Positions 5,208-29,180 of a stretch of 64,000 bases of DNA are shown piece after piece (positions within the stretch are counted from its first letter, which is position 1; the number at the start of each line of letters is the position of its first letter). The notes below the pieces were generated by a model. The model had not been told where the DNA came from. It saw nothing but the letters and a program-made list of their open reading frames with translations, and searched no databases. The translations under genes were made by a program, and so were the position numbers. This stretch comes from an uncultured Methanosarcinales archaeon (lineage in GTDB: Archaea > Nanobdellota > Nanobdellia > Woesearchaeales > DATGWN01): contig CAZUXP010000001.1 of NCBI GenBank assembly GCA_964624275.1, forward strand, positions 1,799-65,798, read 5' to 3'.

Positions 5208-6179
5208 GTGTACTTGCATAAATATATGCTTCAAATACCGTATGAAAAATTACTTGAAATAATTCAAGAAAAGTCCGATTTATCAAAAGATGAAATAACT
5301 AAACGAGTTTCACAAAAATTAGATGAATTTTCTGGTTTAATATCTCAAGAAGGTGCGCTTCATGTTGTAGCACATGATTTGGGTGTTTCATTAGTTAATC
5401 AAATAAATGAACCGTTTAAAATCGATCAAATAAGCGAAAATACGAGAGGAATTAATCTTAAAGCAAAAATTATCAAAAAATATCATATTTCAACTTTTCA
5501 ACGAGAGGGATCTGAAGGAAAAGTTGGTTCAATTTTAGTTGGAGATGATACTGGTGTCATGCGAATTACATTTTGGCATGACCAAACTACAATTTTAGAT
5601 GAACTTGAAGAAAACTCCGTGTATCAATTTGAAGGGTTAACATCAAAAGAAAATCAAGGTCGAGTCGAGTTGACGTATTCACAATCTTGCAATCATACCA
5701 AACTTGATGAAGAATTAGAAGTTGTGCAAAAACAACCTCAAACACAAAATGCTTCAAAAAAGAAAATTGCAGAAGTCAAAGAATCAGATTTTGCACGTTT
5801 TGTCGGAGTTATTGTACAAGTACTAAAACCAACAATTTATATTGTTGATTTACAAACACAGAAACGTGTTCGAATTCAATTCTCTGAATTTGATGAAACA
5901 AAACATCGTTTTGCGGCTGTTTGTAATATTTTACTCGATGATGGAACTGAAGTTATTCGATGTGCCTGTTTTGATGATGTTTGTGAAGCAGTATTTCAAA
6001 CTAAAGTACCAGAGTTAGCAGAACACAGAGATAATGAAACATTCTTTGAAGAAAAAAAGGTTGACATTGTTGGATCAATTGTTGAGCTTCAAGGTCGTAT
6101 CACCAAAAACGATTTATATGATCGGTTAGAATGTATTGCATCTACTGTTACATTAAATCCTGATCCGAATTCTTTGTGA
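5208..6179 (+). CDS. rpa: replication protein A (RPA) ssDNA-binding protein with OB folds
   Basis: Euryarchaeal-type RPA N-terminus (...GLISQEGALHVVAHDLGV) and OB-fold signature SILVGDDTGVMRITFWHDQT. A second OB region lies downstream. Confidence 0.7.
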   Translation: MYLHKYMLQIPYEKLLEIIQEKSDLSKDEITKRVSQKLDEFSGLISQEGALHVVAHDLGVSLVNQINEPFKIDQISENTRGINLKAKIIKKYHISTFQREGSEGKVGSILVGDDTGVMRITFWHDQTTILDELEENSVYQFEGLTSKENQGRVELTYSQSCNHTKLDEELEVVQKQPQTQNASKKKIAEVKESDFARFVGVIVQVLKPTIYIVDLQTQKRVRIQFSEFDETKHRFAAVCNILLDDGTEVIRCACFDDVCEAVFQTKVPELAEHRDNETFFEEKKVDIVGSIVELQGRITKNDLYDRLECIASTVTLNPDPNSL

Positions 6180-6244
6180 TTTCACAATATTTTATTTTCA
6201 CAATCAACTAAACGCTTATAAATTCAAACGATTTATTCATATTA

Positions 6245-6955
6245 ATGACACTTGGCAGAGAAAAGTTTAAAGTATACGGAGATGTATTTGATGCATTTAC
6301 AATTCAAACACTCCATAAATTAGAATCACAAGGGCATATTAGTGAATTAGAGAGTTCTTTGTCTATGGGTAAAGAAGCGCACATTTTTTTAGCAAGACGA
6401 AAAGACGGTATGAAAGTTATTGTTAAGATATATCGTTTACAAAACGCATTTTTTAATAAAATGTATTCGTATATTCGAACTGATCCAAGATATGCTCATT
6501 TAAAAGGAAGAAAACGACAAATTATTTTTCATTGGGTTAGTCGTGAGTTTCGAAACTTGCTTAAAGCTCGTGAAGCAGGTGCTCGAGTTCCAACGCCATA
6601 TACATCACTTCATAATGTCATTGTAATGGAATATATCGGCGATGAAAAAATCGCGTTACAACTTAAAGATTCTCATATTGATGATTTTGAAAGTTTTTTT
6701 GATGATTTAGTAAATCAGTTGCATATTCTTTATAAAAAGGCAAAACTTGTTCATGGTGATTTATCGCAATTTAACATTTTATGTTTAAACCAAAAACCAG
6801 TTTTAATTGATATGAGCCAAACAACGCAAATTGATGACCCAAATGCGCATGAGTATTTTAAACGTGATATGAGTAATTTATTGACTATCGCAAAACGTTT
6901 TGGTCTTGAAAAGACGTTTGAAGACTTAGAAGATAGTATTACAACGTCTGAGTGA
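6245..6955 (+). CDS. rio1: RIO-type serine/threonine protein kinase
   Basis: RIO family signatures: ...SMGKEAHIF...VKIYR..., catalytic LVHGDLSQFNIL, metal-binding IDMSQT. Confidence 0.7.
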   Translation: MTLGREKFKVYGDVFDAFTIQTLHKLESQGHISELESSLSMGKEAHIFLARRKDGMKVIVKIYRLQNAFFNKMYSYIRTDPRYAHLKGRKRQIIFHWVSREFRNLLKAREAGARVPTPYTSLHNVIVMEYIGDEKIALQLKDSHIDDFESFFDDLVNQLHILYKKAKLVHGDLSQFNILCLNQKPVLIDMSQTTQIDDPNAHEYFKRDMSNLLTIAKRFGLEKTFEDLEDSITTSE

Positions 6956-6984
6956 AATGTTTTGAGAATAATTTTTGACAAAAA

Positions 6985-6998
6985 GATTTATATATACA
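6985..6998 (+). promoter_or_regulatory. putative archaeal TATA box/BRE upstream of pilin-like gene
   Basis: tttatatatacat preceded by A-rich BRE-like sequence, about 60 nt upstream of the 7059 start; AT-rich genome lowers specificity. Confidence 0.25.
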
Positions 6999-7058
6999 TA
7001 AAGGGCAGAAGTTACTTTGTGATACACAAACATTCAAACTTCTTTTCATTCGAGGTGT

Positions 7059-8408
7059 GTGAATATGCACACTAAAAAAGCACAAACAGCAACCGAATAT
7101 TTAGTTATTACTGCTGTTGTTATTATTATCGCTTTAATTGTTGTTGGTGTTTTAGGAGGTATTCCTGGTCTTGGTGGTAATATTTCTGAGCAAGAAATTC
7201 GTTTAAAACTCCAAATTCAAGACATTGGAGTGACTGATTATGTTTCTGATTCTTTGAATACTCGGTTATGGCTGACGAATAATAAACAACAAAATGTTCG
7301 AATTGAAGGTATAACTGTAAATGGCAAGAAATGTTCAATTCGCTCGGTAATATTACGAGCTGGTCAAAACCAGCAAGTTGATTGCTGGGGTGTGAAGAAT
7401 TATGACACTTCTGAGTTTAGATTTCCAATAACTATAACGTATTCAGATGTTCAAACTGGTGTATCGTTTACGATAAATGATACTTCAGTTCCACTGGTTG
7501 GAACTGGTCTGGGTGGTACTCGGTTACATACTGGTCAGCAGACTTGTTATGTTGATAATTCAGATACAGAGCAAGATTGTTCAAATGCTGCTGCAGAAGG
7601 TCAAGATGGAAATGTTGATGGAGTTGCGAAATCCTATTCTGATCAAGGAGATAATGTTTTATTAGATGATCATACTGGATTATATTGGACAACAAATGAG
7701 TCTACAAGTATCACTAGAGTTTCTGCTATTTCATATTGTGATGGACTGACACAAGGAGGACATTCTGATTGGAGATTACCTAATAATTTAGAACTTAATA
7801 TTGTGTTGAATAATGATGATGCAACAAATCTTACGCCATCACAATCTTGGGCAACTGGAGATTATTGGTCGACAACAACACAAAGTGTTGGTGCTACCAC
7901 GTATTATTGGAGATTGGTATTACAACCTGGAGTTTTTTATTTTTCACGAGAAAGTTCAGACTCTGCTCAAAACGCAGTTTGCGTAAGAGGAGAAGTCTCA
8001 AGTATTTCATTATCTGACATAGATAAGAATTTTGTGGAGAATGGAGATGGCACAGTTACTGATAGTAACATGGGTATTATTTGGGAAAAAGAATTAAGCA
8101 ATACTAGTACATTAGATTGGCAACAAGCAATTGATCATTGTGAAGCCTTAACAAAAGCAGGATTTTCAGATTGGAGATTACCAACTGTTAATGAAGGATC
8201 AGGGTTAATTGATTATGGTTCAGATAATGCGAGTAATTATTATCCGGATGTGTTTAATTCACCGGGATACTACGATTTATGGACAGGAACTTCTGTATTA
8301 GTTATTGATTATGCTTATACTGTACTTTTAGATGAAGGGCGAGTTAATGTCGATGATAAGAGCTTGTCTCATAACAATCATGCTCGTTGCGTACGTGACC
8401 ACAACTAA
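7059..8408 (+). CDS. type IV pilin-like (class III signal peptide) secreted protein with two DUF1566/Lcl C-terminal (C-type-lectin-fold) domains
   Basis: N-terminus MHTKKA|QTATEYLVITAVVIIIALIVVGVL is an archaeal prepilin-type signal. Two repeats of GL(Y/I)W...W..A...C..LT..G.SDWRLP(T/N)..EL, the second ending ...ARCVRDHN, as in DUF1566. Confidence 0.6.
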   Translation: MNMHTKKAQTATEYLVITAVVIIIALIVVGVLGGIPGLGGNISEQEIRLKLQIQDIGVTDYVSDSLNTRLWLTNNKQQNVRIEGITVNGKKCSIRSVILRAGQNQQVDCWGVKNYDTSEFRFPITITYSDVQTGVSFTINDTSVPLVGTGLGGTRLHTGQQTCYVDNSDTEQDCSNAAAEGQDGNVDGVAKSYSDQGDNVLLDDHTGLYWTTNESTSITRVSAISYCDGLTQGGHSDWRLPNNLELNIVLNNDDATNLTPSQSWATGDYWSTTTQSVGATTYYWRLVLQPGVFYFSRESSDSAQNAVCVRGEVSSISLSDIDKNFVENGDGTVTDSNMGIIWEKELSNTSTLDWQQAIDHCEALTKAGFSDWRLPTVNEGSGLIDYGSDNASNYYPDVFNSPGYYDLWTGTSVLVIDYAYTVLLDEGRVNVDDKSLSHNNHARCVRDHN

Positions 8409-8485: not shown

Positions 8486-9313
8486 ATGAATGAAAAAGGC
8501 AGATTAATAGTATTTGAAGACAAAAAAATCAGGAGAATCTGGTTTAATGAAGAATGGTATTTTTCTGTTGTTGATGTTGTTGCAGTTTTAACTGAAAGTC
8601 CTACACCCAGACAATATTGGGGAAAAGTCAAAGATAGGGAATTTGTCCAACTTCAACTGTCCCCGATTTGGGTACGGTTGAAATTATTTGCAGAAGATGG
8701 AAAATTAAGGGAAACTGATTGTGCTAATACAAAATCTCTCTTTAGAATTATTCAATCGCTTCCAAGTAAAAAAGCAGAACCTTTCAAACAATGGCTTGCA
8801 CAAGTTGGGTATGAAAGAATTCAAGAAATTGAAAATCCTGAATTAGGTCAAAATCGAATTAAAGAATACTACGAACTCAAAGGCTATCCTAGAGATTGGA
8901 TTGATAAAAGACTCAGGGGAATTGCGGTTAGATAGGAACTAACTGAAGAATGGAAAAACAGACAAATCAAGACCAAACAAGAATTTTCCATTCTTACGAA
9001 TGAAATCAGTAAAGCTACTTTTGGCAAAACTGTAGGAGAATATAAAGAATTTAAACAGTTGCAAAAGAAGAATGAAAATTTAAGAGATCATATGACTGAC
9101 TGGGAGCTTATTTTAACCATGATTGGTGAGAAAGCGACGACAGATATTACAAAAGAAGTCGATTCTCAAGGTTTTAAAGAATGCAAAGATTCTGCAAATA
9201 TTGGCGGGAATATAGCAAAAAGAACAAGAGAGGATATAGAGCGAAATTTAAAAAAAAGTGTTATTTCTAAAAATAATTACCTTTCTCAAAAAAATGATAC
9301 AAAATTGAAATAA
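8486..9313 (+). pseudogene. dinD: DinD/Bro-N-like DNA-damage-inducible protein D homologue interrupted by a single in-frame TAG at 8933-8935
   Basis: ORFs 8486..8935 and 9059..9313 are in the same frame. No other stop lies between 8936 and 9313. The combined 275-codon product matches E. coli DinD (274 aa) in length and sequence (DHMTDWELILTMIGEKATTD vs DHMGSTELAANLFRATQTE). Confidence 0.55.
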
Positions 9314-9389
9314 TTTAATCTTATTCCTAAACCACTAATTCATACCCAAATTCATTAACTTTAAAAAAAGAAACGTATTCTATATAAAT

Positions 9390-10001
9390 ATGACTAATCA
9401 ATCGCCTCCGCAATCAGATAGTATAGATGTTCGTGCAGATATTCGTATTCCAAAAGCGCGAATCGCAGTGTTAATTGGTTCTCAAGGAGAAATTAAAAAA
9501 AAAATTGAAGAAGAAACACATTCAAAACTTGAGATTGATTCTCAAGAAGGTGATGTTGGAATTCAATCAAATGATGGTATTAATTGCTTTTTAGCAAAAG
9601 ATATTGTTCGTGCAATTGGTCGTGGCTTTAATCCAGAATTAGCACTTTTATTAATAAAACCTGAATATACATTAGAAGTTATTGATTTATCAGATGGTTT
9701 TAAATCTAAAAACGCAATGATGCGTGTCAAAGGACGTGTTATTGGTTCAAAAGGAAAAACACGAAATGTTATTGAAAAAACAATGCAAGTTCATGTTTCA
9801 GTATTTGGAAAAACAATTAGTCTAATTGGTGAAGTAGAACGGGTATTAAGTTCAAAGCAAGCAATTGAAATGATTATTGATGGATCTCCGCATTCGTCAG
9901 TCTATAAATGGCTTGAAAAAAAAGAAAAAGCGTTTGCTCAACAAGAAATGCTTGGTCAAACAGTTCAAGTTAAAGACGAGTTTAAAAAGTATATGGAATA
10001 A
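9390..10001 (+). CDS. KH-domain RNA-binding protein (archaeal Dim2/Pno1-like, two KH domains)
   Basis: RIPKARIAVLIGSQGEIKKKIEEET and a second GxxG-type KH region (VIGSKGKTRNVIEKT). Confidence 0.6.
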   Translation: MTNQSPPQSDSIDVRADIRIPKARIAVLIGSQGEIKKKIEEETHSKLEIDSQEGDVGIQSNDGINCFLAKDIVRAIGRGFNPELALLLIKPEYTLEVIDLSDGFKSKNAMMRVKGRVIGSKGKTRNVIEKTMQVHVSVFGKTISLIGEVERVLSSKQAIEMIIDGSPHSSVYKWLEKKEKAFAQQEMLGQTVQVKDEFKKYME

Positions 10002-18751: not shown

Positions 18752-19231
18752 TTATAATTCAATTTTTGCAAGTTGACTGTAAAGCTCAATAAATCCATTT
18801 TTGTCAAGATTAATTCCCGCATCAACAATAGTTTTTGCTAACAAGGCGATGTCTTCTTTTTGTGTTTTAATACTATATGGTTTTTCTAACACAGTTTGAA
18901 GATTTTTGAGTGTATATTGACAAACAAATCCGTCATTTACTCTAAATACAACTGGTTTTTTAGTTTTGCTATTAATGATTTTCTGTGTTTTTGTACTATA
19001 CATATAATCAGAGTTGTAGAAATAAAATCCTTTTTGAGTGAATCCGAGTTGTGTAAAAAAGTCTTGAATTATTGTTTGTGGTTGTGTGTGTTGAATTGAT
19101 ACTTGTTGTGTATGCTCAATAATTTTTCCTAAATATTTTACGACTTTTTGAGTCGTTTTTTGTTTTTTCCAAACACTTTTAACTAAATATGCATAAGAGT
19201 TCGTTGAAATCTTTTTAATTCGAATAAACAT
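18752..19231 (-). CDS. hypothetical protein
   Basis: 159 aa ORF, no recognised motif. Confidence 0.35.
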   Translation of the reverse strand: MFIRIKKISTNSYAYLVKSVWKKQKTTQKVVKYLGKIIEHTQQVSIQHTQPQTIIQDFFTQLGFTQKGFYFYNSDYMYSTKTQKIINSKTKKPVVFRVNDGFVCQYTLKNLQTVLEKPYSIKTQKEDIALLAKTIVDAGINLDKNGFIELYSQLAKIEL

Positions 19232-19293
19232 GTTTATGTAAAGATAAATGCATACTTAAATGTTGTGATTCATATTATACTACTGCAAAAAAA

Positions 19294-19956
19294 TTATAGA
19301 AAGTCTAATTGACTTTCTTCTGCAAATGGATTTTCGATTTTTTGTGAACCAAATCGTGTGAAATAATAACATCGTATATTAATAACATCTTCCATTCCAT
19401 CAAATCCAAGCATTGAAATCAATTCTTTTATAATTGTTTTTTCTTGAGTTTTATAACTGTCGTGTATAATAAAGTCAATATCTACTTCGTCATATGTTCG
19501 AACAAGAGCAAAATTAATAAGTGAATCTTTATTCACACCAAATTTCCATTTTTCAACATTGTACTCTTTAAAGTCTCGTTCGATTCGAACAGATATTTTT
19601 CGACTTTTCTCAATCATTAATTTTCGAATATCACTCTGTGTCGGCTGACGTTCTTTTTGCAATGTTTGAATGATTTGTTTCATCTTATCGTATGTTGATG
19701 CTTCAAATTCTTCCGTATGGTTGATACCATTCGGACTATAATACGATCTATATATAATCCAACCGTCTTCAGTCTTTCGTGATTCTATTCTGACATTCAA
19801 ACTACTTTTGTTGTTCTCAAAGCATACGAAGTCTTTTTCAGAAACTGTTTGTACCCATCCCATAATAGAAGGGTAGTTTTGTTTTCTTTTAAAGTTTTTG
19901 GATTTTAGACGTTTCTGTTCAATTATCTCAAATATCCAATAGTTCATTAAAAACAA
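19294..19956 (-). CDS. hypothetical protein
   Basis: 220 aa ORF, no recognised motif. Confidence 0.35.
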   Translation of the reverse strand: MFLMNYWIFEIIEQKRLKSKNFKRKQNYPSIMGWVQTVSEKDFVCFENNKSSLNVRIESRKTEDGWIIYRSYYSPNGINHTEEFEASTYDKMKQIIQTLQKERQPTQSDIRKLMIEKSRKISVRIERDFKEYNVEKWKFGVNKDSLINFALVRTYDEVDIDFIIHDSYKTQEKTIIKELISMLGFDGMEDVINIRCYYFTRFGSQKIENPFAEESQLDFL

Positions 19957-19992: not shown

Positions 19993-21684
19993 ATGGGGAG
20001 TAATTACAAAGAATTAGACTCGCAAATGGTTCAAGCGTATTATAATCGTCCCGAAATTATTAAGCAAATTGTAATTCTTTCGCAGAATAAAGAAGTTGTT
20101 GCTTCATTTGATGGTACGAGTTATGCAAAAAGACCTGATATTATTCAGTATGAATCGGATGTGAAAGAACTTATAAAACGTGGAGCGACGTCATTTCATG
20201 CGTCTGAGGAACTCTGGGATGATCCACTTTCTATTCAAACAGGGATGTCACAAAAAGAACTTAGCTCACTTCGAAAAGGTTGGGATTTATTACTTGATAT
20301 TGATTGCCCTTATTTACCTTATTCGCAAATCGCGGCCGATATGGTTATCCAAGCACTTTACGCAAATGGTTTAAAAGATGTAACATGTAAGTTTTCGGGT
20401 AATCACGGTTTTCATATCGGAGTGGTATTTGAAGCATTTCCAAAAGAATTTAATAGTGAATTAACAAAGAACCAATTTCCACTTTTACCGAAAATAATTG
20501 CAGAATATATCATGTATCTTATTGAAAAGCCGTTGCGTGAAAAATTATTGGAGTCTGAATCATCTCATGTTGATTCAATAAAAGTAATTGCACAAAAATG
20601 CGGGTTACAAAAAAATGATATCGTACAAAATGATCAATTAAATGTTTATTCAATCGTTGAGATAGATACGATTTTGTTAACGTCACGTCACTTATATCGA
20701 CAAGCATACTCATTAAATGAAAAAAGTGGTCTTGTATCACTTCCTATAAATCCTAAAAAAGTTCTTTCATTTAAACCAGAAATCGCAAAACCACAAAGTT
20801 GTCCGATATCTCGCTATGGATTTTTACAACGAACAAACATTGATTCATCCCAAAGTATTGTGCTTTTAACAAATGCGTATGACTTTTATTCAAAAAAAGA
20901 ATCCGAAAAAGAAAAACGTAATTTTGCAAAATCACGTTCTAAACAAGCATATGAAGAATTTTTAGAAAAAATACCCGAACATTGTTTTCCTCCCGAAATA
21001 CGTCAATTACTCGGACCATTACCGGATGGGAAAAAAAGAGCGTTATTTATCTTGGTTTATTTTCTTCGTTCATGTCGATATTCAAACGATGAAATAATTC
21101 AAATGATGTATGACTGGAATAAGAAACATCCAGAACCACTTCGAGATGCGTATATGCAAGGTCAGATGAGTCATTTTTTACGCGAAAAACGCAAATTATT
21201 ACCACCTAATTTTGAGACTGGAATATATTCTGATATTTTACGAAAACCAGTACAAAAAGAAAGTCTTCGTTATAAAAATCCAGTAATGTATGCTGAAGTG
21301 ATGTATAAAAATCAATCTCCTAAAAAGACTCGGATTAAAACATTTGTGAGTTGTGTGTTTGCAAAAGATGATTCAATACTTGTCACAAAAAATAAAGAGG
21401 GGTTATATACACTTATATCTCAACCATTGAAAAAAGACGATATTCCAAAAGAAGTGTTAGAAGTTTATTTGCAAAAGAAAAGTTTACTTTTTCGACCGAA
21501 ATTCCTTATAACATATCATTTTACGTATAATAATCATTCTTATAAAAATTTCATGTTTCAAGTTATAGTAAAAGAATTTATTGTGGTTGAAAACTCAGAA
21601 TGGGTTTTGAAAAAAGAAATTACAATGGAAAATTCCACACCTGATGTTTTGTTTTATGTGCAAGATTTTTACCAAATTTCATAA
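19993..21684 (+). CDS. priS: DNA primase small catalytic subunit PriS with C-terminal helical extension (PriS-PriL-CTD-like fusion as in Nanoarchaeota)
   Basis: Catalytic motifs WDLLLDIDCPY (DxD) and FSGNHGFHIGV (SGxRGxH). 563 aa versus about 350 for a stand-alone PriS; no separate priL in the window. Confidence 0.65.
   Translation: MGSNYKELDSQMVQAYYNRPEIIKQIVILSQNKEVVASFDGTSYAKRPDIIQYESDVKELIKRGATSFHASEELWDDPLSIQTGMSQKELSSLRKGWDLLLDIDCPYLPYSQIAADMVIQALYANGLKDVTCKFSGNHGFHIGVVFEAFPKEFNSELTKNQFPLLPKIIAEYIMYLIEKPLREKLLESESSHVDSIKVIAQKCGLQKNDIVQNDQLNVYSIVEIDTILLTSRHLYRQAYSLNEKSGLVSLPINPKKVLSFKPEIAKPQSCPISRYGFLQRTNIDSSQSIVLLTNAYDFYSKKESEKEKRNFAKSRSKQAYEEFLEKIPEHCFPPEIRQLLGPLPDGKKRALFILVYFLRSCRYSNDEIIQMMYDWNKKHPEPLRDAYMQGQMSHFLREKRKLLPPNFETGIYSDILRKPVQKESLRYKNPVMYAEVMYKNQSPKKTRIKTFVSCVFAKDDSILVTKNKEGLYTLISQPLKKDDIPKEVLEVYLQKKSLLFRPKFLITYHFTYNNHSYKNFMFQVIVKEFIVVENSEWVLKKEITMENSTPDVLFYVQDFYQIS
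21643..21671 (+). repeat. left direct repeat (att-like), within priS 3' end
   Basis: Exact 29-bp match to 26220-26248. Confidence 0.7.
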
Positions 21685-21718
21685 GTTTTATAAATCGACG
21701 TCACAGACATCTTTTTGT

Positions 21719-23257
21719 ATGAATTTTAGATCACAAACGTCAACTGAATATTTAATTATCACTGCAGTTGTAATTGTTATTGCATTACTCGTTGTTTCAT
21801 TACTCAGCGATATTCCAAATATAGCGGGTGATATAAAAGCTGATGACGTTGTTTTAGCTACTCAAGTAATTGGAATATCTGAATATGTCATTACTGATGG
21901 TGGTATGCAATTAACGATCCGAAATAATGATGTATCATCAAAAACCATAGTTCAATTAAGCGTTGGAGATATAATTTGTAGTTCATCTGATATACCTATA
22001 ACATTACAGGTAGGGGTAAAAAAAACAATTACTTGTTCAAATATTCGCGATTCCGTTGTCAGTTCAAGTTTTACTGAACCAGTTGTTGCGGTTTATAAAG
22101 ATTTACAGACTGATTCAATCTTTATTCAAAAAGGAAATAATGTTGCGGTGAGTGGTCGCACTGCAAAATTTTCAGTTGAAAATTATATTCCAAGTATAGA
22201 TAAAAGTCAATCGACACTGTATCAAACAGGAAGTTGGACAAATATTAGCGATGAACCACGAAAATTTGTGTTTGAATCATATGATGATGCGATTTTTTTA
22301 TGTAAATATGGACATAAATCAAATATTAACTCTAAAACATTTTCTGAGTGTGATGGTGGAGATGGAAGTCAACCATTTGTTCATATTAAAATGGATAACG
22401 ATACAACCCATAGACCTGAAATAACTGCTCATGCAAAAGGAACGTATGTCTTAGAAGTCAAAGTGCAAAAAAGTGGTGTTGAATCAAAAATATTACGGCA
22501 TGAATTTTATATGTTTCCAATTAGAATGGAAGCATTATGCGTAAATCAGTTTGATAAAACAAATGCGGAATATTTTACTATTGCAAAACAATTTTTACGA
22601 CCAGAGGGTGTTTTTCCTGCAACAACTCAATTAGAAGCTCCATTTTTGAAAATCGATTTTTCAGATGGAACAATTGCTATTCCGATGACTTTTGGAAAAG
22701 AATTGAAATTTAATCCTGAGCGAAATTTAATTTTAATGAAACGAGTGTATGCAAAAGGTGGTGCTAGTATTGCAAGCGATGAAAACTGTCGATTATATGT
22801 TCCTTCAGCGGTTTGCAGAGACTTGTTTGAATACGGAGATGAATTATGTAAAGCTGATGGAGAAGATGAGTTTAATGGAGATTTTAGGTGTGCTGGATCT
22901 TGTCCAAGAGATGAAAGCGGGAGTTTCTATTATTATTTGCATTCTCCGACATACTGGAAACAGGATAGTAACTCATGTGATGCACTTGTATTTAATCGAG
23001 ACGGAAAAGGTGTTTGTATTCAAGGCGAAGAAGTTTTACGAGAAGTGTACAATGTAAAAGATATTTTTTATAAAAATTATATTTTCACAGACAAAATAAA
23101 AGAGTCCTTTATTGATATAAATACTGATTGTTCCGGCGAAATATTTGTTGACAATTGGGGTTATGAATATTGTCAAGCAATTGGAAATACTGTCGCAAAT
23201 TCAATTGAAGAAACATATGGGCTTAATATAATGAACCCTTTACAACTTCCTGAATGA
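21719..23257 (+). CDS. type IV pilin-like (class III signal peptide) Cys-rich secreted protein
   Basis: Probable start ATG 21719 (MNFRS|QTSTEYLIITAVVIVIALLVVSLL, prepilin-type signal). About 20 Cys in the mature region. The ORF track's 21644 start overlaps priS and is unlikely. Confidence 0.55.
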   Translation: MNFRSQTSTEYLIITAVVIVIALLVVSLLSDIPNIAGDIKADDVVLATQVIGISEYVITDGGMQLTIRNNDVSSKTIVQLSVGDIICSSSDIPITLQVGVKKTITCSNIRDSVVSSSFTEPVVAVYKDLQTDSIFIQKGNNVAVSGRTAKFSVENYIPSIDKSQSTLYQTGSWTNISDEPRKFVFESYDDAIFLCKYGHKSNINSKTFSECDGGDGSQPFVHIKMDNDTTHRPEITAHAKGTYVLEVKVQKSGVESKILRHEFYMFPIRMEALCVNQFDKTNAEYFTIAKQFLRPEGVFPATTQLEAPFLKIDFSDGTIAIPMTFGKELKFNPERNLILMKRVYAKGGASIASDENCRLYVPSAVCRDLFEYGDELCKADGEDEFNGDFRCAGSCPRDESGSFYYYLHSPTYWKQDSNSCDALVFNRDGKGVCIQGEEVLREVYNVKDIFYKNYIFTDKIKESFIDINTDCSGEIFVDNWGYEYCQAIGNTVANSIEETYGLNIMNPLQLPE

Positions 23258-23341
23258 ATAGAATAATTGTCGATTTGTTTTATATCTCGGTATAAAACAA
23301 TAATATGGTAGAGTCAATTACTCCAAATACCTATTCATTCA
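23251..23341 (+). ncRNA. nested inverted-repeat element immediately upstream of the RT gene (candidate RT-associated ncRNA or terminator)
   Basis: Outer 11-bp inverted repeat tgaatgaatag (23251-23261) / ctattcattca (23331-23341). Inner perfect 10-bp hairpin ttgttttata-tctcgg-tataaaacaa. Ends 6 nt before the RT start codon. Confidence 0.3.
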
Positions 23342-23347
23342 TTTTTT

Positions 23348-24511
23348 ATGGATATAAAAAAAAAACTAACAAAAATTGCAAAAAAAAAACGACGAAATAC
23401 TGAGAAGTCTCTTGTTTTGAAAATGAGGGAGAGTAACACATTTCAAAAAATATTTCACACAGAAATAAATACTGATTTTATTCTATCTCCAGTTATTTTA
23501 AAAGAAGCAATTATAGAAAGAAAAAAACGGATCATCGTACATTTACAGCCACAAGATCAACTCTATCATGCATATTTAGCAAAACTACTTATCAACTCAT
23601 ATTCTCATAAAAATCTCTATTCCTATACACCAAAAAAATCGTCATATGTTGCAGTTCAAAATTTTGCTAAATTCATTAGAAAGAATACGACAAAAAAAGG
23701 ATTGTATCTTTATTCATTTGATATAAAAAAATATACTGAGAACATTCCACTTCACTCAAAAAGTAAATTGTGGGATTACATTGAAAAATTAGCTTCAAAA
23801 AAAACAATGCTTGCAGTACAAAAATGTTTACGAATAGAAAATACAAATGGTTTTTGCTACTTTAAGGGTATTTTGTTTGGTTCTCCATTAGCACCTCCTA
23901 TTTATAATCTCTATGCAAAAGAAATAGACAAACTTTGTGAAAAGGCAGAATTTGCAATTCGGTATTGTGATGATTTATTGATTGCAACAAAAAATGAAGC
24001 TACATTATTTGCTTTACAAAAAGAAATTCAACAAAAACTTCAAGAATTAGAACTTTCAATAAAAACTGAAAAGGAACAATATGTTCATTTAATAAAAAGT
24101 GGATTTTCTAATTCAAAATGTAGAGGGGCTGAATATATTGACCATTTAGGTTTTCGAATATTTGCAAATGGAACAATTGGACTTCCTCAAAAAAAATTAC
24201 GATCACTTTATTCAGAATTAAAGCAGATTTTGATTCAGTCTAGAAAATTACTGCAAAAAAAATCGTTTGAATATGAATTGCAATTTTATATCTCTTCAAT
24301 TAACTCGTTTTTAACAGATTCGCAATTTCAACAGACATATGTAAGAACGCTTTTAGCTCAAGTAACAAGTCGAAGGCAATTACGAGATATTGATAGAACA
24401 ATTGCATCGTATATCTCGAGGACTTTGACAAAAAGTGATCTTAAAATACCTGCAATTGTGTTATATCAAAAAGGTCTTTTATCCGTTGTAGCTTTGAGGA
24501 ACAATAAATGA
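23348..24511 (+). CDS. reverse transcriptase (prokaryotic retroelement-type; no maturase or endonuclease domain)
   Basis: RT motifs in order: motif 1 ERKKRIIVHL.P.D, motif 2 YLYSFDIKKYTENIP, motif 4 GILFGSPLAPPIYNLY, motif 5 IRYCDDLLIA (YxDD), motif 6/7 HLGFRIF; about 110 aa thumb-like C-terminus. Confidence 0.8.
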   Translation: MDIKKKLTKIAKKKRRNTEKSLVLKMRESNTFQKIFHTEINTDFILSPVILKEAIIERKKRIIVHLQPQDQLYHAYLAKLLINSYSHKNLYSYTPKKSSYVAVQNFAKFIRKNTTKKGLYLYSFDIKKYTENIPLHSKSKLWDYIEKLASKKTMLAVQKCLRIENTNGFCYFKGILFGSPLAPPIYNLYAKEIDKLCEKAEFAIRYCDDLLIATKNEATLFALQKEIQQKLQELELSIKTEKEQYVHLIKSGFSNSKCRGAEYIDHLGFRIFANGTIGLPQKKLRSLYSELKQILIQSRKLLQKKSFEYELQFYISSINSFLTDSQFQQTYVRTLLAQVTSRRQLRDIDRTIASYISRTLTKSDLKIPAIVLYQKGLLSVVALRNNK

Positions 24512-26148
24512 ATTCAAAAGAATGGGTTGAAACAGAAAAACAAAAAGCGCAATCGTTTAAAAGGCTTTATAATCATATTTTGGGAAATTTTTATCCCTAT
24601 TTTTTTTATCGAATACGCTATAGTTTGCTGAGGTTTTCAACATCATATGTATTATTTTTAATCGAATTTTTTATATTACTTCAAACAGTATATGCTTCTT
24701 TTGCTATACCTTTTCTATTTGCAAGAATTGCTATTTCTGGAATCATTACATTTACATGGGGCTCAATTGAAGGTTTACGAGAAAAGTTACGAAAGAAAAG
24801 TATTAGTCTTGCAAATAGTTACATACAAAGAGTTATTTTTTCATATCGACTTATTGCGATACCGTTGTTAATTATAGGATTTTTTCTGTTATATTATGAT
24901 GTGAAAAATGTTATTGGAGTTTTAGCATTTTATCATATATATATTTTATACTTTCTGTTACTAGTTTTTATTGAGTTAGATTATAGTATTCATCAAACAA
25001 GTATTTTTGTGCATAAAAGAGTACACAAAAAAGTATGGCCATATATTGTAATTGACATTTTTGGTACAATGAGTTTGTTTATTGGGTATACAATTGTTGG
25101 TCCTTATGCTTTACCAGTTTCTCTAATTATACATCTTCTTCTAAAGTATATAGTTCATATGTACTACATAAAAAAAAATATGAGTGAATTGTATGGCAAT
25201 ATAGCTTCAAAAAAAAACCTTATCATTTTTCCATTCTCATCGTTATCTGTTGGTTTACTTCACGTTTCAGTTTTTTCGTTACCTTTTATGTATTTGTTTT
25301 CTTCAGGTTTTGCGAATCTTTCAAATACGTATATTATCGTTTCGCTGATTGCAACACCTCTTTTGAGTTTTTCTTTTTTCTGGAGCAAATTATTTTATTT
25401 TGATATCAAAAAGATGCAAAAAGACTGGTTTTTGCTCGGAATCAAAGAACTCTATAAAAAACTATTAGTATATGCAATTTTTATTGGACTTATTCTTTTA
25501 GGAATTAACACCGTAATTCAGTTTTTATATTTTGGAAGAATTGTTCTGTTCTTAGAATTTTCATTTCTTTTTATTTGTTCTTCACTTTTAGGAGTGCTTA
25601 TATTACGCCTCACTACTACGCAGAATATTTTTCAGAGATATGGTCTGATTATTTTATCTATATTTTCAATTGTCTTTTTTGCAGAATGGATACCATATAT
25701 CTTATTTTTGTTTTTTATTTTATTTTTTTTACCAAAAAAAGAATACAAGTATTCTCAAGGTCTTGTTCCTTTGAGTTATTTTGCAAAAAAACCTTCGTTT
25801 GTTTATCAAACAAGTAATCCTACAAAAGTCAAAGAGTTGTTTGTAAAAGAATCAATACCTTTTGCAAAATTTGGAAAGAAAACATTTGTTTCAAGAGAAC
25901 TTCCTTTCTCTTTTTTTCGAGGTTATTTAAAGAACAGCAGAAGACTTTTATCAAAGGATTTTGTTCAAAAAGGATTATTTTTTCAAAAAATTTCAAAAAA
26001 ATATATACTTGTAAAATCATTCGAAAAAGATATATTATATCAAGTACTATTAAAATATAAAAGAAGTAATAATCTTACTATTCAAAAAAATCAATATTAT
26101 GTGAAATGTTCAAAAGGTTTTATAGAAAATATATATGTGAAAAAATAA
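24508..26148 (+). CDS. polytopic membrane protein (at least 10 TM helices) with basic C-terminal soluble tail; translationally coupled to RT (ATGA overlap)
   Basis: 546-aa ORF, unlikely by chance in 25% GC DNA. Multiple 20-25 residue hydrophobic segments; Lys-rich C-terminal 150 aa. Confidence 0.5.
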   Translation: MNSKEWVETEKQKAQSFKRLYNHILGNFYPYFFYRIRYSLLRFSTSYVLFLIEFFILLQTVYASFAIPFLFARIAISGIITFTWGSIEGLREKLRKKSISLANSYIQRVIFSYRLIAIPLLIIGFFLLYYDVKNVIGVLAFYHIYILYFLLLVFIELDYSIHQTSIFVHKRVHKKVWPYIVIDIFGTMSLFIGYTIVGPYALPVSLIIHLLLKYIVHMYYIKKNMSELYGNIASKKNLIIFPFSSLSVGLLHVSVFSLPFMYLFSSGFANLSNTYIIVSLIATPLLSFSFFWSKLFYFDIKKMQKDWFLLGIKELYKKLLVYAIFIGLILLGINTVIQFLYFGRIVLFLEFSFLFICSSLLGVLILRLTTTQNIFQRYGLIILSIFSIVFFAEWIPYILFLFFILFFLPKKEYKYSQGLVPLSYFAKKPSFVYQTSNPTKVKELFVKESIPFAKFGKKTFVSRELPFSFFRGYLKNSRRLLSKDFVQKGLFFQKISKKYILVKSFEKDILYQVLLKYKRSNNLTIQKNQYYVKCSKGFIENIYVKK

Positions 26149-26219
26149 GATTTTTAACTCAACTTTTCAATTATCATTTAAACATAACAGAAATTTTTAA
26201 GACGGAAAACTCCAAATAT

Positions 26220-26248
26220 GATGTTTTGTTTTATGTGCAAGATTTTTA
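26220..26248 (+). repeat. right direct repeat (att-like) with orphan priS 3'-end fragment
   Basis: Exact 29-bp match to 21643-21671; in-frame translation reproduces the priS C-terminal residues followed by TAA. Confidence 0.7.
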
Positions 26249-26291
26249 AAACAATCGGAACACATTTAAATATCTTCCTAACCTCATATAT

Positions 26292-26870
26292 ATGTCACAA
26301 TTACTTGAAAAACCAACAGTTCCTTATTTGGATTTTGACTCAGATAGTTCTTTTTTTCATCTTTATGTTGTAGGATACATGAATAAAACTCAGGGTTTTC
26401 AAATTATTGCGTGTGAAAATGAAAATTTTCATGGGAATAAAATCACAAGTCCTTGGTATTTTATCGTTTCTCAACCAGATTTTTTATTAGCAGCAGTTGA
26501 CACGACTGAATCAACAATACATTTTGCACGAAATGGACTTTATGAATATGCGTACAAAAGTGTTTCTGATTCTTACATGACTGATTTTCGTTCTTATCCG
26601 CGTTCATTAGATCCTTGCGTATATGCAAGTGTTGTAAGAAAAGGTTTTGCAAAAACTATTTTGTCAAAAAGTAATTTGAAAAGTATTGATAGAGTAATGA
26701 GAAGTTCCATTCAAAATAATTCTTCAACAGAAATAACGTTTGAAGTTCTAAAAATTCATAAGGCGCTCGTAGATTCATTTCCAAATGATGTACTATCTGG
26801 ATATTTTCCAAGTTCCCACTTTTTACTTAAAAACGAACATCGTGATTTTACTATTAATGATTTGATCTGA
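26292..26870 (+). CDS. hypothetical protein
   Basis: 192 aa ORF downstream of the insertion; no recognised motif. Confidence 0.35.
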   Translation: MSQLLEKPTVPYLDFDSDSSFFHLYVVGYMNKTQGFQIIACENENFHGNKITSPWYFIVSQPDFLLAAVDTTESTIHFARNGLYEYAYKSVSDSYMTDFRSYPRSLDPCVYASVVRKGFAKTILSKSNLKSIDRVMRSSIQNNSSTEITFEVLKIHKALVDSFPNDVLSGYFPSSHFLLKNEHRDFTINDLI

Positions 26871-26948: not shown

Positions 26949-29180
26949 ATGCAACTTGCAAAATCATTTCAACCCCGTATTTATCAAGAAACAATCACCG
27001 CACAGTGTGTAAATCAACATTCATTAGTTGTATTGCCAACAGGGCTTGGAAAAACTGCGATTTCACTCTTGGTTGCGTTATATAAACTCAGAAAATGTCC
27101 TGATAAAAAAATCCTCATTTTAGCGCCTACAAAACCTCTTGTGCATCAACATTTAAAATCTTTTATGGAACTTATTGAAAAACCAAATGACGTGGATTTT
27201 GCAGTATTTACGGGAGCAATAAAACCAGAAAAACGAAAAGAATTATTTGAAACAGCAAAAATTATTTTTAGCACACCGCAAGGATTAGAAAATGATATTC
27301 TTTCTTCAAGAATCTCATTAAAAGAGCTGTCATTAATTATTTTTGATGAAGCACATCGAGCCACAGGAGAATATAGTTATGTGTGGATTGCAAAACAATT
27401 TTTAAAACAATCACCGCAAGGAACAATCTTAGGATTAACCGCATCTCCTGGAACTGATAGAGAAACAATTCAAGAAATTAAAGATAATTTATATATTGAA
27501 CATATCGAATACCGTGAACAAACAGATTCTGACGTAAAACCATATATTAAAAAAACTCAAGTTATATTTGATGAACTTGATTTACCGTCAAGTATTTTAG
27601 AATTGCAAACAACCTTATTTAAGTGTTATGAATCGCGAGCAAAACAACTTCAGCAATACGGATATTTTCAATCAAAACCAATTAAATCGATTCAAAAAAA
27701 AGAATTATTGATGTTAACAGGAAGTTTACAAAAAAAGATTGCGCAGCAAGATTTTTCGCCTGAAGTTTTACAAGGGATATCACTCTCTGCACAAATACTT
27801 AAATTATCATATGCGCTTGAACTCTGTGAAACTCAAGGTGTTCCAAGCTTGTATCAATACATGCATAGTTTGGTAAAAGATGCTCAAGCTAAAAAATCAA
27901 AAGGTGTTGTTGCATTAAATCAGGATCCAACATTTCGATTTGCCTATATTAAAACAAAAGAGTTGTACGAGCAAGGAGTTACACACCCAAAATTGTCAAA
28001 ACTTCAAGATATTGTTTTAGAAACATTACAAAAAAAACCGGATGCAAAAATAATAATATTTAGTCAATATCGTGAAACGCTTTCTATGATCATTGAAACA
28101 CTTCAAATTCATAAACAAATTCGTGCATCATTATTTTTTGGCCAAGCAAAAAAAAAAGGTGTTGGAATGTCGCAAAAAGAACAACTACAAACAATTCAGG
28201 ATTTTAAAGATAGCATTCATAATGTATTATGTATGTCAAGTGTTGGCGAAGAAGGGCTTGATATTCCAAGTGTTGATATAGTTTTATTTTATGAACCAAT
28301 ACCAAGTGCAATTCGAACTATTCAAAGAAGAGGTCGAACAGGAAGACAAGACGAAGGGCTTGTTCGAGTATTATGTGCAAGAAATACTCGAGATATTGCG
28401 ATACGGTGGATTGCACAAAAAAAAGAAAAAAATATGTATTCAGTGTTAGAAGAGTTTACAAAACCAAAAAAAACAACATTATCACATTTTACAACTGCAA
28501 AAAAAGAAGTTGCACCTCTTTTAACTCTTTACGCAGATTCGCGAGAAAAAAAAAGCGGGGTGTTACGCAAACTTCATGATTTAGATATTCATATTCAAAG
28601 TCAAAAACTTCAAATAGGTGATTTTCAGCTATCAAAAGATGTTGTTGTTGAATTTAAACATGTCAAAGATTTTGTCGATTCTTTACTTGATAAACGATTA
28701 TTTCATCAAATTCAAGCATTAAAGCAAACAGTAAAAAAACCACTCATTATAATTCAAGGTGAAAAAAGTATTTACGGAGTTCGAAATATACATCCTAACG
28801 CAATAAACGGAATGCTTGCAACAATTACTGTATCATATCAAATACCAGTTTTATTTACTCGAAGCGATTCAGAAACTGCAAATTTACTTTACACAATTTT
28901 AAAACGTGAACAAGATCAATCTCAAAAACCATTTATCGCGCAAACAATACATAAACAACAAACAAAGAAAGCTCAATTAGAGCAAATTGTGTCTCAAATT
29001 CCAAACATTGGACCACTTGTCGCTCAAAAACTTCTCAATCATTTTGAATCATTACAAAATTTAAGTAATGCGTCTATTGAAGAAATATTGTCTATTCCAG
29101 GAATTGGAGAACAGCGCGCAACAGATATTTATACATTCTTTCGGATACGATATTTAGATCCAAATAATTTTTTGGAATAA
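26949..29180 (+). CDS. hef: Hef helicase-nuclease (archaeal FANCM/XPF homologue: SF2 helicase plus ERCC4 nuclease plus (HhH)2)
   Basis: Walker A VLPTGLGKT, DEAH box FDEAHRATG, helicase motif VI QRRGRTGRQ. C-terminal ERCC4-like region with GDFQLSKD...VEFK and HhH (IPGIGEQRATDIY). Confidence 0.8.
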   Translation: MQLAKSFQPRIYQETITAQCVNQHSLVVLPTGLGKTAISLLVALYKLRKCPDKKILILAPTKPLVHQHLKSFMELIEKPNDVDFAVFTGAIKPEKRKELFETAKIIFSTPQGLENDILSSRISLKELSLIIFDEAHRATGEYSYVWIAKQFLKQSPQGTILGLTASPGTDRETIQEIKDNLYIEHIEYREQTDSDVKPYIKKTQVIFDELDLPSSILELQTTLFKCYESRAKQLQQYGYFQSKPIKSIQKKELLMLTGSLQKKIAQQDFSPEVLQGISLSAQILKLSYALELCETQGVPSLYQYMHSLVKDAQAKKSKGVVALNQDPTFRFAYIKTKELYEQGVTHPKLSKLQDIVLETLQKKPDAKIIIFSQYRETLSMIIETLQIHKQIRASLFFGQAKKKGVGMSQKEQLQTIQDFKDSIHNVLCMSSVGEEGLDIPSVDIVLFYEPIPSAIRTIQRRGRTGRQDEGLVRVLCARNTRDIAIRWIAQKKEKNMYSVLEEFTKPKKTTLSHFTTAKKEVAPLLTLYADSREKKSGVLRKLHDLDIHIQSQKLQIGDFQLSKDVVVEFKHVKDFVDSLLDKRLFHQIQALKQTVKKPLIIIQGEKSIYGVRNIHPNAINGMLATITVSYQIPVLFTRSDSETANLLYTILKREQDQSQKPFIAQTIHKQQTKKAQLEQIVSQIPNIGPLVAQKLLNHFESLQNLSNASIEEILSIPGIGEQRATDIYTFFRIRYLDPNNFLE

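Follow-up and report, generated by a model that had tools for sequence, protein, structure and literature searches.

A reverse transcriptase, structured RNA and membrane protein cassette bracketed by a duplicated primase gene end in a Woesearchaeales archaeon

Here we analyze a 64,000-nucleotide (nt) stretch of DNA, referred to below as the window, from an uncultured archaeon that GTDB places in the Woesearchaeales (GenBank assembly GCA_964624275.1, contig CAZUXP010000001.1, positions 1,799 to 65,798 of the forward strand). Two copies of a short direct repeat, one at the 3' end of a DNA primase gene and one in a spacer 4.6 kb downstream of it, bracket a discrete module consisting of a gene for a pilin-like cysteine-rich protein, a structured RNA, a gene for a stand-alone reverse transcriptase (RT) and a gene for a membrane protein of approximately 10 helices. 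An initial annotation had described the locus as an RT-carrying element inserted site-specifically into the end of the primase gene. The features are as follows, with position 1 as the first letter of the window.

19993..21684, + strand: fused PriS-PriL DNA primase of 563 amino acids (aa; Pfam DNA_primase_lrg and DNA_primase_S).
21620..21671, + strand: left repeat copy (attL-like), a 23-nt diverged arm followed by an exact 29-nt core (21643-21671), encoding the last primase residues before YQIS and the stop codon.
21686..21695, + strand: TATA-box-like TTTTATAAAT, putative promoter of the pilin-like gene, 15 nt past the repeat, conserved in loci L002 and L003 (introduced below).
21719..23257, + strand: pilin-like cysteine-rich secreted or surface protein with a class III signal peptide, 512 aa (N terminus MNFRSQTSTEYLIITAVVIV, weak Class_IIIsignal match).
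23251..23341, + strand: conserved structured noncoding RNA (ncRNA) with an 11-bp closing stem (23251-23261 / 23331-23341) and an inner 12-bp hairpin at about 23275-23300.
23348..24511, + strand: stand-alone RT, 387 aa, catalytic motif YCDD, unclassified and UG26-like (Pfam RVT_1, 6e-21; no extra domain).
24508..26148, + strand: polytopic membrane protein, 546 aa, with a soluble C-terminal part in addition to about 10 hydrophobic helices; the gene shares its first 4 nt with the last 4 nt of the RT gene.
26106..26249, + strand: putative 47-aa open reading frame (ORF), called as a gene in a Logan assembly, overlapping the end of the membrane protein gene and terminating with the right repeat copy (…TENSKYDVLFYVQDF and stop).
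26197..26248, + strand: right repeat copy (attR-like), a diverged arm and the exact core (26220-26248), within the 143-nt spacer before the next gene.
26264..26273, + strand: TATA-box-like ATTTAAATAT, putative promoter of the 192-aa gene, 15-17 nt past the right repeat.
26292..26870, + strand: 192-aa gene with no assigned function, the first gene beyond the bracketed unit.
26949-29180: Hef helicase/nuclease gene, following the 192-aa gene.

The initial annotation had correctly listed the three protein-coding genes of the cargo, a prepilin-type cysteine-rich protein, an RT and a polytopic membrane protein, but its inventory omitted the structured RNA between the pilin-like gene and the RT gene. 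The 5' arm of its closing stem overlaps the stop codon of the pilin-like gene, and the 3' arm ends 6 nt before the start codon of the RT gene. Equivalent RNAs lie upstream of the RT in three other archaeal loci, namely, L002 (positions 2431-2528), a 3.9-kb contig from ENA, L003 (6522-6604), from a Logan assembly, and L004 (5685-6000), from the Woesearchaeota genome GCA_047602825.1. In a three-locus alignment analyzed with RNAalifold, 12 of the 26 predicted base pairs show compensatory changes and 94.7% of the cells are paired; none of 500 shuffled alignments attained the observed values, and slid control alignments gave one to three compensatory pairs. The fold of the window RNA has a z-score of -3.8, and the GC-rich L004 RNA, which spans 316 nt and likewise has a closing stem, reaches -13.7. 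Rfam returned no match between 21500 and 26400, whether the gathering threshold was applied or the limit was relaxed to E ≤ 1. The RNA is probably encoded on the + strand, judging from conserved U-G pairs and from its orientation, which is that of the RT gene; folding energy is similar on both strands and does not discriminate between them. The RNA hairpin and the 29-nt repeat have the 10-nt sequence TTTGTTTTAT in common. The window contains six copies of this 10-mer, L002 does not conserve it, and we judged this link to be due to chance.

The best PADLOC model for the RT is RT_UG26, with 69.5 bits compared with 68.6 bits for a generic RT model, in an alignment covering the full length (protein residues 8-366, model positions 22-370 of 398). 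UG26 is a class 2 UG/Abi group without a known function, the prediction of a defence role for UG26 is itself inconclusive, and several class 2 groups carry 5' ncRNAs (PMC9226505). A group II intron was rejected based on 69.3 bits for the RT against the NCBIfam group II RT/maturase model TIGR04416 (cutoff 300) and the absence of intron RNA (domains V/VI) from the Rfam results for 21500-26400. Membership in the retrons was rejected based on 33.7 bits against NCBIfam NF038233 (cutoff 235), with PADLOC retron RT models giving E-values of approximately 1e-6 to 1e-7. The score for NCBIfam Drt3a was also far below the cutoff. A diversity-generating retroelement (DGR) was likewise rejected: there is no pair of template and variable repeats (TR/VR), motif 4 of the RT reads FGSPLAP rather than containing the DGR-type SQ, and no DGR model matched at threshold. 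Among solved structures, the nearest are remote, with Cas6-RT-Cas1 at 1e-7. A word-index search with the RT found a single relative, P0122, at 58% identity, whereas an exhaustive search with HMMER returned 700 proteins with E < 1e-3, of which 29 had E < 1e-30. These are mostly RTs of 430-450 aa that are likewise weakly UG26-like (63-124 bits), and two named ones come from a Legionellales bacterium and a Woesearchaeota archaeon. RT-profile scans of genome, metagenome and viral contig collections gave no match.

The pilin-like protein has one hydrophobic segment, at its N terminus. Homologs are encoded upstream of the RT in L002 (59% identity), L003 (31%) and L004 (27%), and the four archaeal proteins are mutually homologous. 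Elsewhere in the window (7059-8408) there is a second pilin-like gene with an Lcl_C domain (Pfam, 1e-36), and the DNA for its signal peptide (7081-7145) is 81.5% identical to that of the pilin-like gene of the module (21732-21796). The membrane protein has no family match in Pfam, PADLOC or PHROGs, and its structure prediction was unusable (predicted local distance difference test, pLDDT, of 40). The space at its 3' end, which we considered as the possible remnant of a second Nudix-like gene, is the conserved C terminus of the membrane protein gene. Among the cargo proteins, PHROGs matched only the RT, to a generic reverse-transcriptase family.

Comparison with other genomes indicates that the RT, the RNA and the membrane protein form a conserved system with an exchangeable upstream partner, present in both bacteria and archaea. 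L002 contains, in the same order as the window, the C terminus of the primase, the pilin-like gene, the RNA, the RT gene and the start of the membrane protein gene; the contig (ERZ27301260, k141_1161516) stops 180 nt into the latter, before the right junction. In L003, the three genes and the RNA adjoin a divergent Peptidase_U32 gene, and a second pilin-like gene follows. A 116-nt repeat in L003 (5059-5174 / 9470-9585, 84% identical) was considered as a pair of attachment (att) sites and rejected; it corresponds to the N-terminal starts of the two pilin-like genes, with evenly spread differences as expected of pilin paralogy. In L004, the pilin-like gene, the RNA, the RT gene and a gene for a 622-aa membrane protein are located beside genes for RNase HII and a DDE transposase. 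Converging on the end of this membrane protein gene is a 99-aa gene (9158-9457, - strand) with a by-eye D...E-x-K-like motif (…EADIVARIDNEIHFYEVKC…), reminiscent of small PD-(D/E)xK nucleases.

In five further loci (L008-L012), an RT (at approximately 6001-7338, or 4761-6074 in L011) and a downstream partner of 660-717 aa recur as a pair. The partner following the RT is homologous to the membrane protein of the window in L003, L004, L008 and L009 (blastp, 1e-11 to 1e-117), and in L011 and L012 it is identified by size and position only. The upstream neighbors of the RT vary: a PLD-like gene, separated from the RT by an insertion sequence, in L008 (a Legionellales metagenome-assembled genome), Fic and integrase genes in L009 and L010, a gene without a known function in L011, and Wza/Wzc-like export genes (with a Wzc-like polysaccharide co-polymerase) in L012. 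As a separate observation, a 177-nt perfect direct repeat in L008 (3688-3864, 5684-5860) flanks a DDE transposase gene just upstream of the RT, and its first copy consists of the last 158 nt of the PLD-like gene plus 19 nt, a further case of an insertion enclosed by copies of the upstream gene's 3' end. Because the module has different contexts in L003, L004, L008, L009, L011 and L012, and is absent beside the primase in three more distant relatives (L005-L007), it clearly behaves as accessory DNA that is transferable on evolutionary time scales. None of the PADLOC, NCBIfam, Pfam and Rfam libraries defines the RT-membrane protein system. The most useful new facts obtained here are the covarying RNA and the insight that the cargo is a conserved RT-RNA-membrane protein system, and this system may itself be a more novel item than the repeat.

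All that the initial annotation had reported on the repeat was borne out in detail. The two copies of the 29-nt sequence GATGTTTTGTTTTATGTGCAAGATTTTTA, at 21643-21671 and 26220-26248 on the + strand, match exactly and are its only occurrences in the window. No third copy was found in the window with up to three mismatches allowed, nor any sub-motif elsewhere in it, which rules out a dispersed regulatory motif, and 100 shuffles of the window sequence gave no 29-mer match; chance does not account for the pair. Read in frame, the left copy gives ...MENSTPDVLFYVQDF followed by YQIS and stop, and the right copy gives ...TENSKYDVLFYVQDF and stop, the near-duplicate of the primase C terminus described before. 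With the upstream flanks, previously called similar but imperfect, the repeat spans 52 nt (21620-21671 and 26197-26248), of which 87% are identical. Within the 23-nt arm, 16 positions are identical, a level attained by random pairs of 23-mers from the window at a frequency of 9e-5. This 5' arm contains all seven mismatches, and the 29-nt core on its 3' side is free of them (P = 0.0018 under uniform mismatches), and directly past 21671 and 26248 the ungapped identity drops to background, so that the boundary is sharp. The mismatches are T/C, C/A, A/G and similar, with an A in one copy at only three of the seven positions, and are thus not adenine specific. A sensitive self-comparison revealed only this 52-nt pair and no other near-repeat within 24 kb. 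A gap of 15 nt separates the left copy from the TATA box of the pilin-like gene, and one of 49 nt separates the stop codon of the membrane protein gene from the right copy. An assembly artefact is ruled out because L001, a Logan assembly made independently (SRR11308339), has the identical sequence throughout an 8741-nt stretch covering both copies; moreover, a 29-nt repeat is shorter than the k-mers that assemblers use.

The primase into which the left copy extends has 2258 homologs, the named ones mostly from Woesearchaeota and Nanoarchaeota. The best non-self matches have approximately 50% identity over approximately 77% of the query and stop at about residue 440; the tails of the homologs are rich in K and E and lack a C-terminal extension. 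The extension of approximately 120 aa in the window primase (about 21310-21684) is lineage specific. It is common only to L002 (485-868), with 44.5% identity, that is, to the two genomes that have the RT module beside the primase gene. No Pfam match to the extension was obtained even at E ≤ 10, and its single-sequence structure prediction was unusable (pLDDT 37); a resemblance to Nudix proteins seen by eye is an unverified guess. L002 is the closest relative of the primase, with 63% identity in the PriL part compared with 41-47% for others (residues 275-440). The primase loci of L005-L007 have neither the module nor the extension. Upstream synteny in L007 matches the window (MetRS gene and genes of 159 and 220 aa), but downstream synteny is not conserved among L005-L007, which prevents the reconstruction of an empty site. 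The genes of 159 and 220 aa (18752-19956 in the window), small and with no assigned function, lie upstream of the primase gene in divergent orientation; they are syntenic with the primase gene in L007 (5630-6823), and one of the two is relocated downstream of the primase gene in L006 (4312-4827). The surroundings otherwise are those of an ordinary chromosome, with genes for MetRS, Hef, CysRS, a Y-family polymerase, RadA, another class I aminoacyl-tRNA synthetase and ribosomal proteins.

We tentatively interpret the repeat pair as the att-like scar of a Campbell-type insertion of a nonautonomous, defence-like RT cassette of 4.5 kb at the 3' end of the primase gene, a reading that we favor without conviction. 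The locus resembles the scar of an old recombination event more than an active retroelement that moves by itself, and the RT has no detectable role in making the repeat. An exact core beside homologous but diverged arms is the trace expected from recombination between a chromosomal site and a look-alike site on incoming DNA, and this supports insertion. Integration into the 3'-distal parts of protein-coding genes is known for archaeal integrated elements, and att sites in Crenarchaeota measure 29-69 bp (PMC6563490); the 29 exact and 52 imperfect nucleotides observed here lie within the reported archaeal size range.

From the layout of the two copies, we infer a mechanism and a direction of events. 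The incoming DNA would have carried a short look-alike of the primase gene end, and recombination would have taken place inside the shared 29 nt, either in a site-specific manner or through short-homology Campbell-type exchange. The left copy would then have kept the host arm, completed by cassette sequence (YQIS and stop, followed by the cassette promoter), and the right copy would have kept the arm of the incoming DNA (…TENSKY), with the original gene end (F and stop) and the promoter of the next gene behind it. The cassette may already have occupied this site when the L002 lineage split off, or may return to the same site; alternatively, the two lineages could have gained it independently at the same site. 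The still-perfect core would imply a recent event between the copies, such as re-integration, exchange or replacement between sister strains, or short-patch conversion.

Several observations weigh against an insertion. In L002, the only close relative and an occupied one, the junction is homologous (xQxS and stop, plus TATA box): the primase ends ...NTFLQES and stop (GATTTACTGTATTATGTGAACACATTTTTA-like), followed by the same TATA box and the pilin-like gene. The window and L002 are about equally diverged in the primase (55% identity), the pilin-like protein (59%) and the RT (58%), a co-divergence that fits plain vertical inheritance of a resident cluster. In L002, the sequence corresponding to the 29-mer differs at 10 or more of 29 positions. 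If the insertion dates back to the split between the window and L002, a noncoding copy identical at 29 of 29 positions is difficult to explain without a later, recent event. No integrase, recombinase, transposase or nuclease was detected among the cargo proteins with Pfam, PADLOC, NCBIfam or PHROGs, as the initial annotation had already stated for integrases, and the borders leave no room for split integrase fragments. Composition at third codon positions (GC3) is that of the host, with z-scores of -0.18, -0.30 and 0.01 for the module genes relative to 52 window genes. The module in L004 has no flanking repeat. The primase expected from an empty site (559 aa) and the ORF of a circle junction are absent from a collection of 15 billion proteins, in which the window proteins that we checked are all singletons.

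The initial annotation had proposed looking for an empty site, with the primase ending ...DVLFYVQDF and stop directly before the 26292 gene, and none was found in relatives or in the protein collection. As observations that would speak against integration, it had named related genomes with the same gene order and no empty-site variant, or the repeat at many unrelated loci. L002 supplies the first of these in half. Its proposal of integration at the priS 3' end thus stands in part: repeats that hug a discrete module, the exact core with diverged arms and the presence of the module elsewhere speak for it, and the shared junction in L002, the native GC3 and the missing empty site against. Targeting of the primase gene is possible but unproven.

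A less probable alternative, yet one to be taken seriously, is that the cluster is a vertically inherited resident beside the primase gene, and that the downstream copy arose when a small piece of the primase 3' end was duplicated ectopically or copied by short-patch gene conversion, for example as a by-product of repair, with no relation to mobility. The gene order, homologous junction and co-divergence in L002 would all follow from residence, as would the native codon-position composition, the lack of a recombinase, the other module copies without a flanking repeat and the absence of predicted excision products from the protein collection. Residence leaves unexplained, however, why the duplicate sits exactly at the far border of the module and why arms that are 30% diverged adjoin a perfect core, and it has to accommodate a module that occupies other contexts in six loci and is not beside the primase in L005-L007.

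We consider it improbable that the module is an active site-specific integrative element served by a recombinase in trans, with the core kept identical by repeated strand exchange. Such an element would account for the perfect core and diverged arms, for the cassette at this site in both known clade members and for a repeat length within the archaeal att range (PMC6563490). No integrase is encoded within the module, however, and neither an integrase nor a transposase was found among the 20 flanking window genes scanned; the protein collection holds no circular or empty junction product, the 29-mer matched no viral contig, the RT is absent from phage and plasmid records, and composition is native.

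Still more doubtful is a shared cis element or peptide, that is, an upstream promoter element, an oligo-T terminator, or a C-terminal DVLFYVQDF common to the primase and the 47-aa protein. Both repeat copies do end 15-17 nt upstream of a TATA-like box, the core contains T-runs, and a gene finder called the 47-aa ORF that ends in the right copy. Identity at every synonymous and non-T position is unlike selection on function, though, and there is no further copy or sub-motif in 64 kb, the counterpart in L002 differs as described, and the 47-aa ORF has no relatives among the 15 billion proteins. Finally, an origin of the repeat through the RT is effectively refuted: although DGRs account for approximately 80% of RTs in DPANN archaea (PMC8632793) and one copy lies at a gene 3' end, as a variable region would, the pair is far shorter than a TR/VR pair and stands alone within 24 kb, an A occupies one copy at only three of seven mismatches, the RT has the FGSPLAP motif 4 and no DGR or group II model match at threshold, intron RNA is missing, and a target-site duplication from retrotransposition would not show 30%-diverged arms.

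Returning to the insertion of an RT cassette, a bolder version of it is that an integrase-less cassette of a new RT system, with an exchangeable partner (pilin-like in DPANN archaea; PLD, Fic or Wzc-like in bacteria), specifically recombines with the primase 3' end in one Woesearchaeota clade and thereby rewrites the primase tail; we regard this as a long shot.

The module itself most probably works in the manner of DRT systems, class 2 UG/Abi RTs and retrons. By this analogy, the RT would bind the upstream RNA and use it as a template or primer, and the translationally coupled membrane protein together with the variable upstream protein would act as effector or sensor. Given the envelope proteins (Wzc-like, pilin-like and others) encoded upstream in several loci, the role may instead lie at the cell surface and not in defence.

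Non-DGR RTs are rare in DPANN archaea, where their roles are not known. The locus points to a system of RT, RNA and membrane protein common to bacteria and archaea, joined in its archaeal form to a large cysteine-rich surface protein. The cassette is not an RT-bearing mobile element in the sense of a retroelement. Should the repeats be genuine recombination sites, they would illustrate the movement of accessory cassettes, possibly for defence, in tiny symbiont genomes without obvious integrases, with a core replication gene used as a landing pad. If they are not, the finding shrinks to a 52-nt duplication, a curiosity next to a gene cluster that is resident. The initial annotation knew of no precedent, which holds for the combination but not for 3'-end targeting as such (PMC6563490).

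In comparison with known systems, the locus resembles the DGRs of DPANN archaea in having an RT beside a surface-protein gene in a DPANN genome, but a TR/VR pair is missing, the mismatches are not adenine specific and the RT motif is not of the DGR type. The similarity to retrons lies in the order of RNA, RT and effector, in a long terminal stem like a1/a2 and in a membrane protein directly downstream, and is one of form only. The RT scores far below the cutoff of the retron model, and the membrane partner is much larger than retron effectors with two transmembrane segments. Archaeal integrated mobile genetic elements, for example, those of thaumarchaea (PMC6563490), share with this locus the direct repeats that flank a multigene accessory segment, the restoration of a reading frame by element sequence, a gene 3' end as target and the repeat length. 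Those elements encode an integrase or casposase and were verified against empty sites, whereas the present locus has no recombinase, an empty site was not found, composition is native and a sister lineage has the same junction. With respect to class 2 UG/Abi RTs (UG2/DRT2, UG28/DRT9, UG27, UG26; PMC9226505), the 69 bits for UG26 are near the scores of generic RT models and do not establish membership, and some UG26 members have a Vsr-like endonuclease, whereas the constant partner here is a membrane protein of approximately 10 helices, accompanied by a pilin-like protein in the archaeal form. What the locus has in common with this class is an RT of approximately 400 aa that stands alone and has no additional domain, a same-strand structured RNA immediately upstream of it, neighboring genes of accessory or effector type and relatives close to mobile-element genes, with RT_UG26 as the best PADLOC model.

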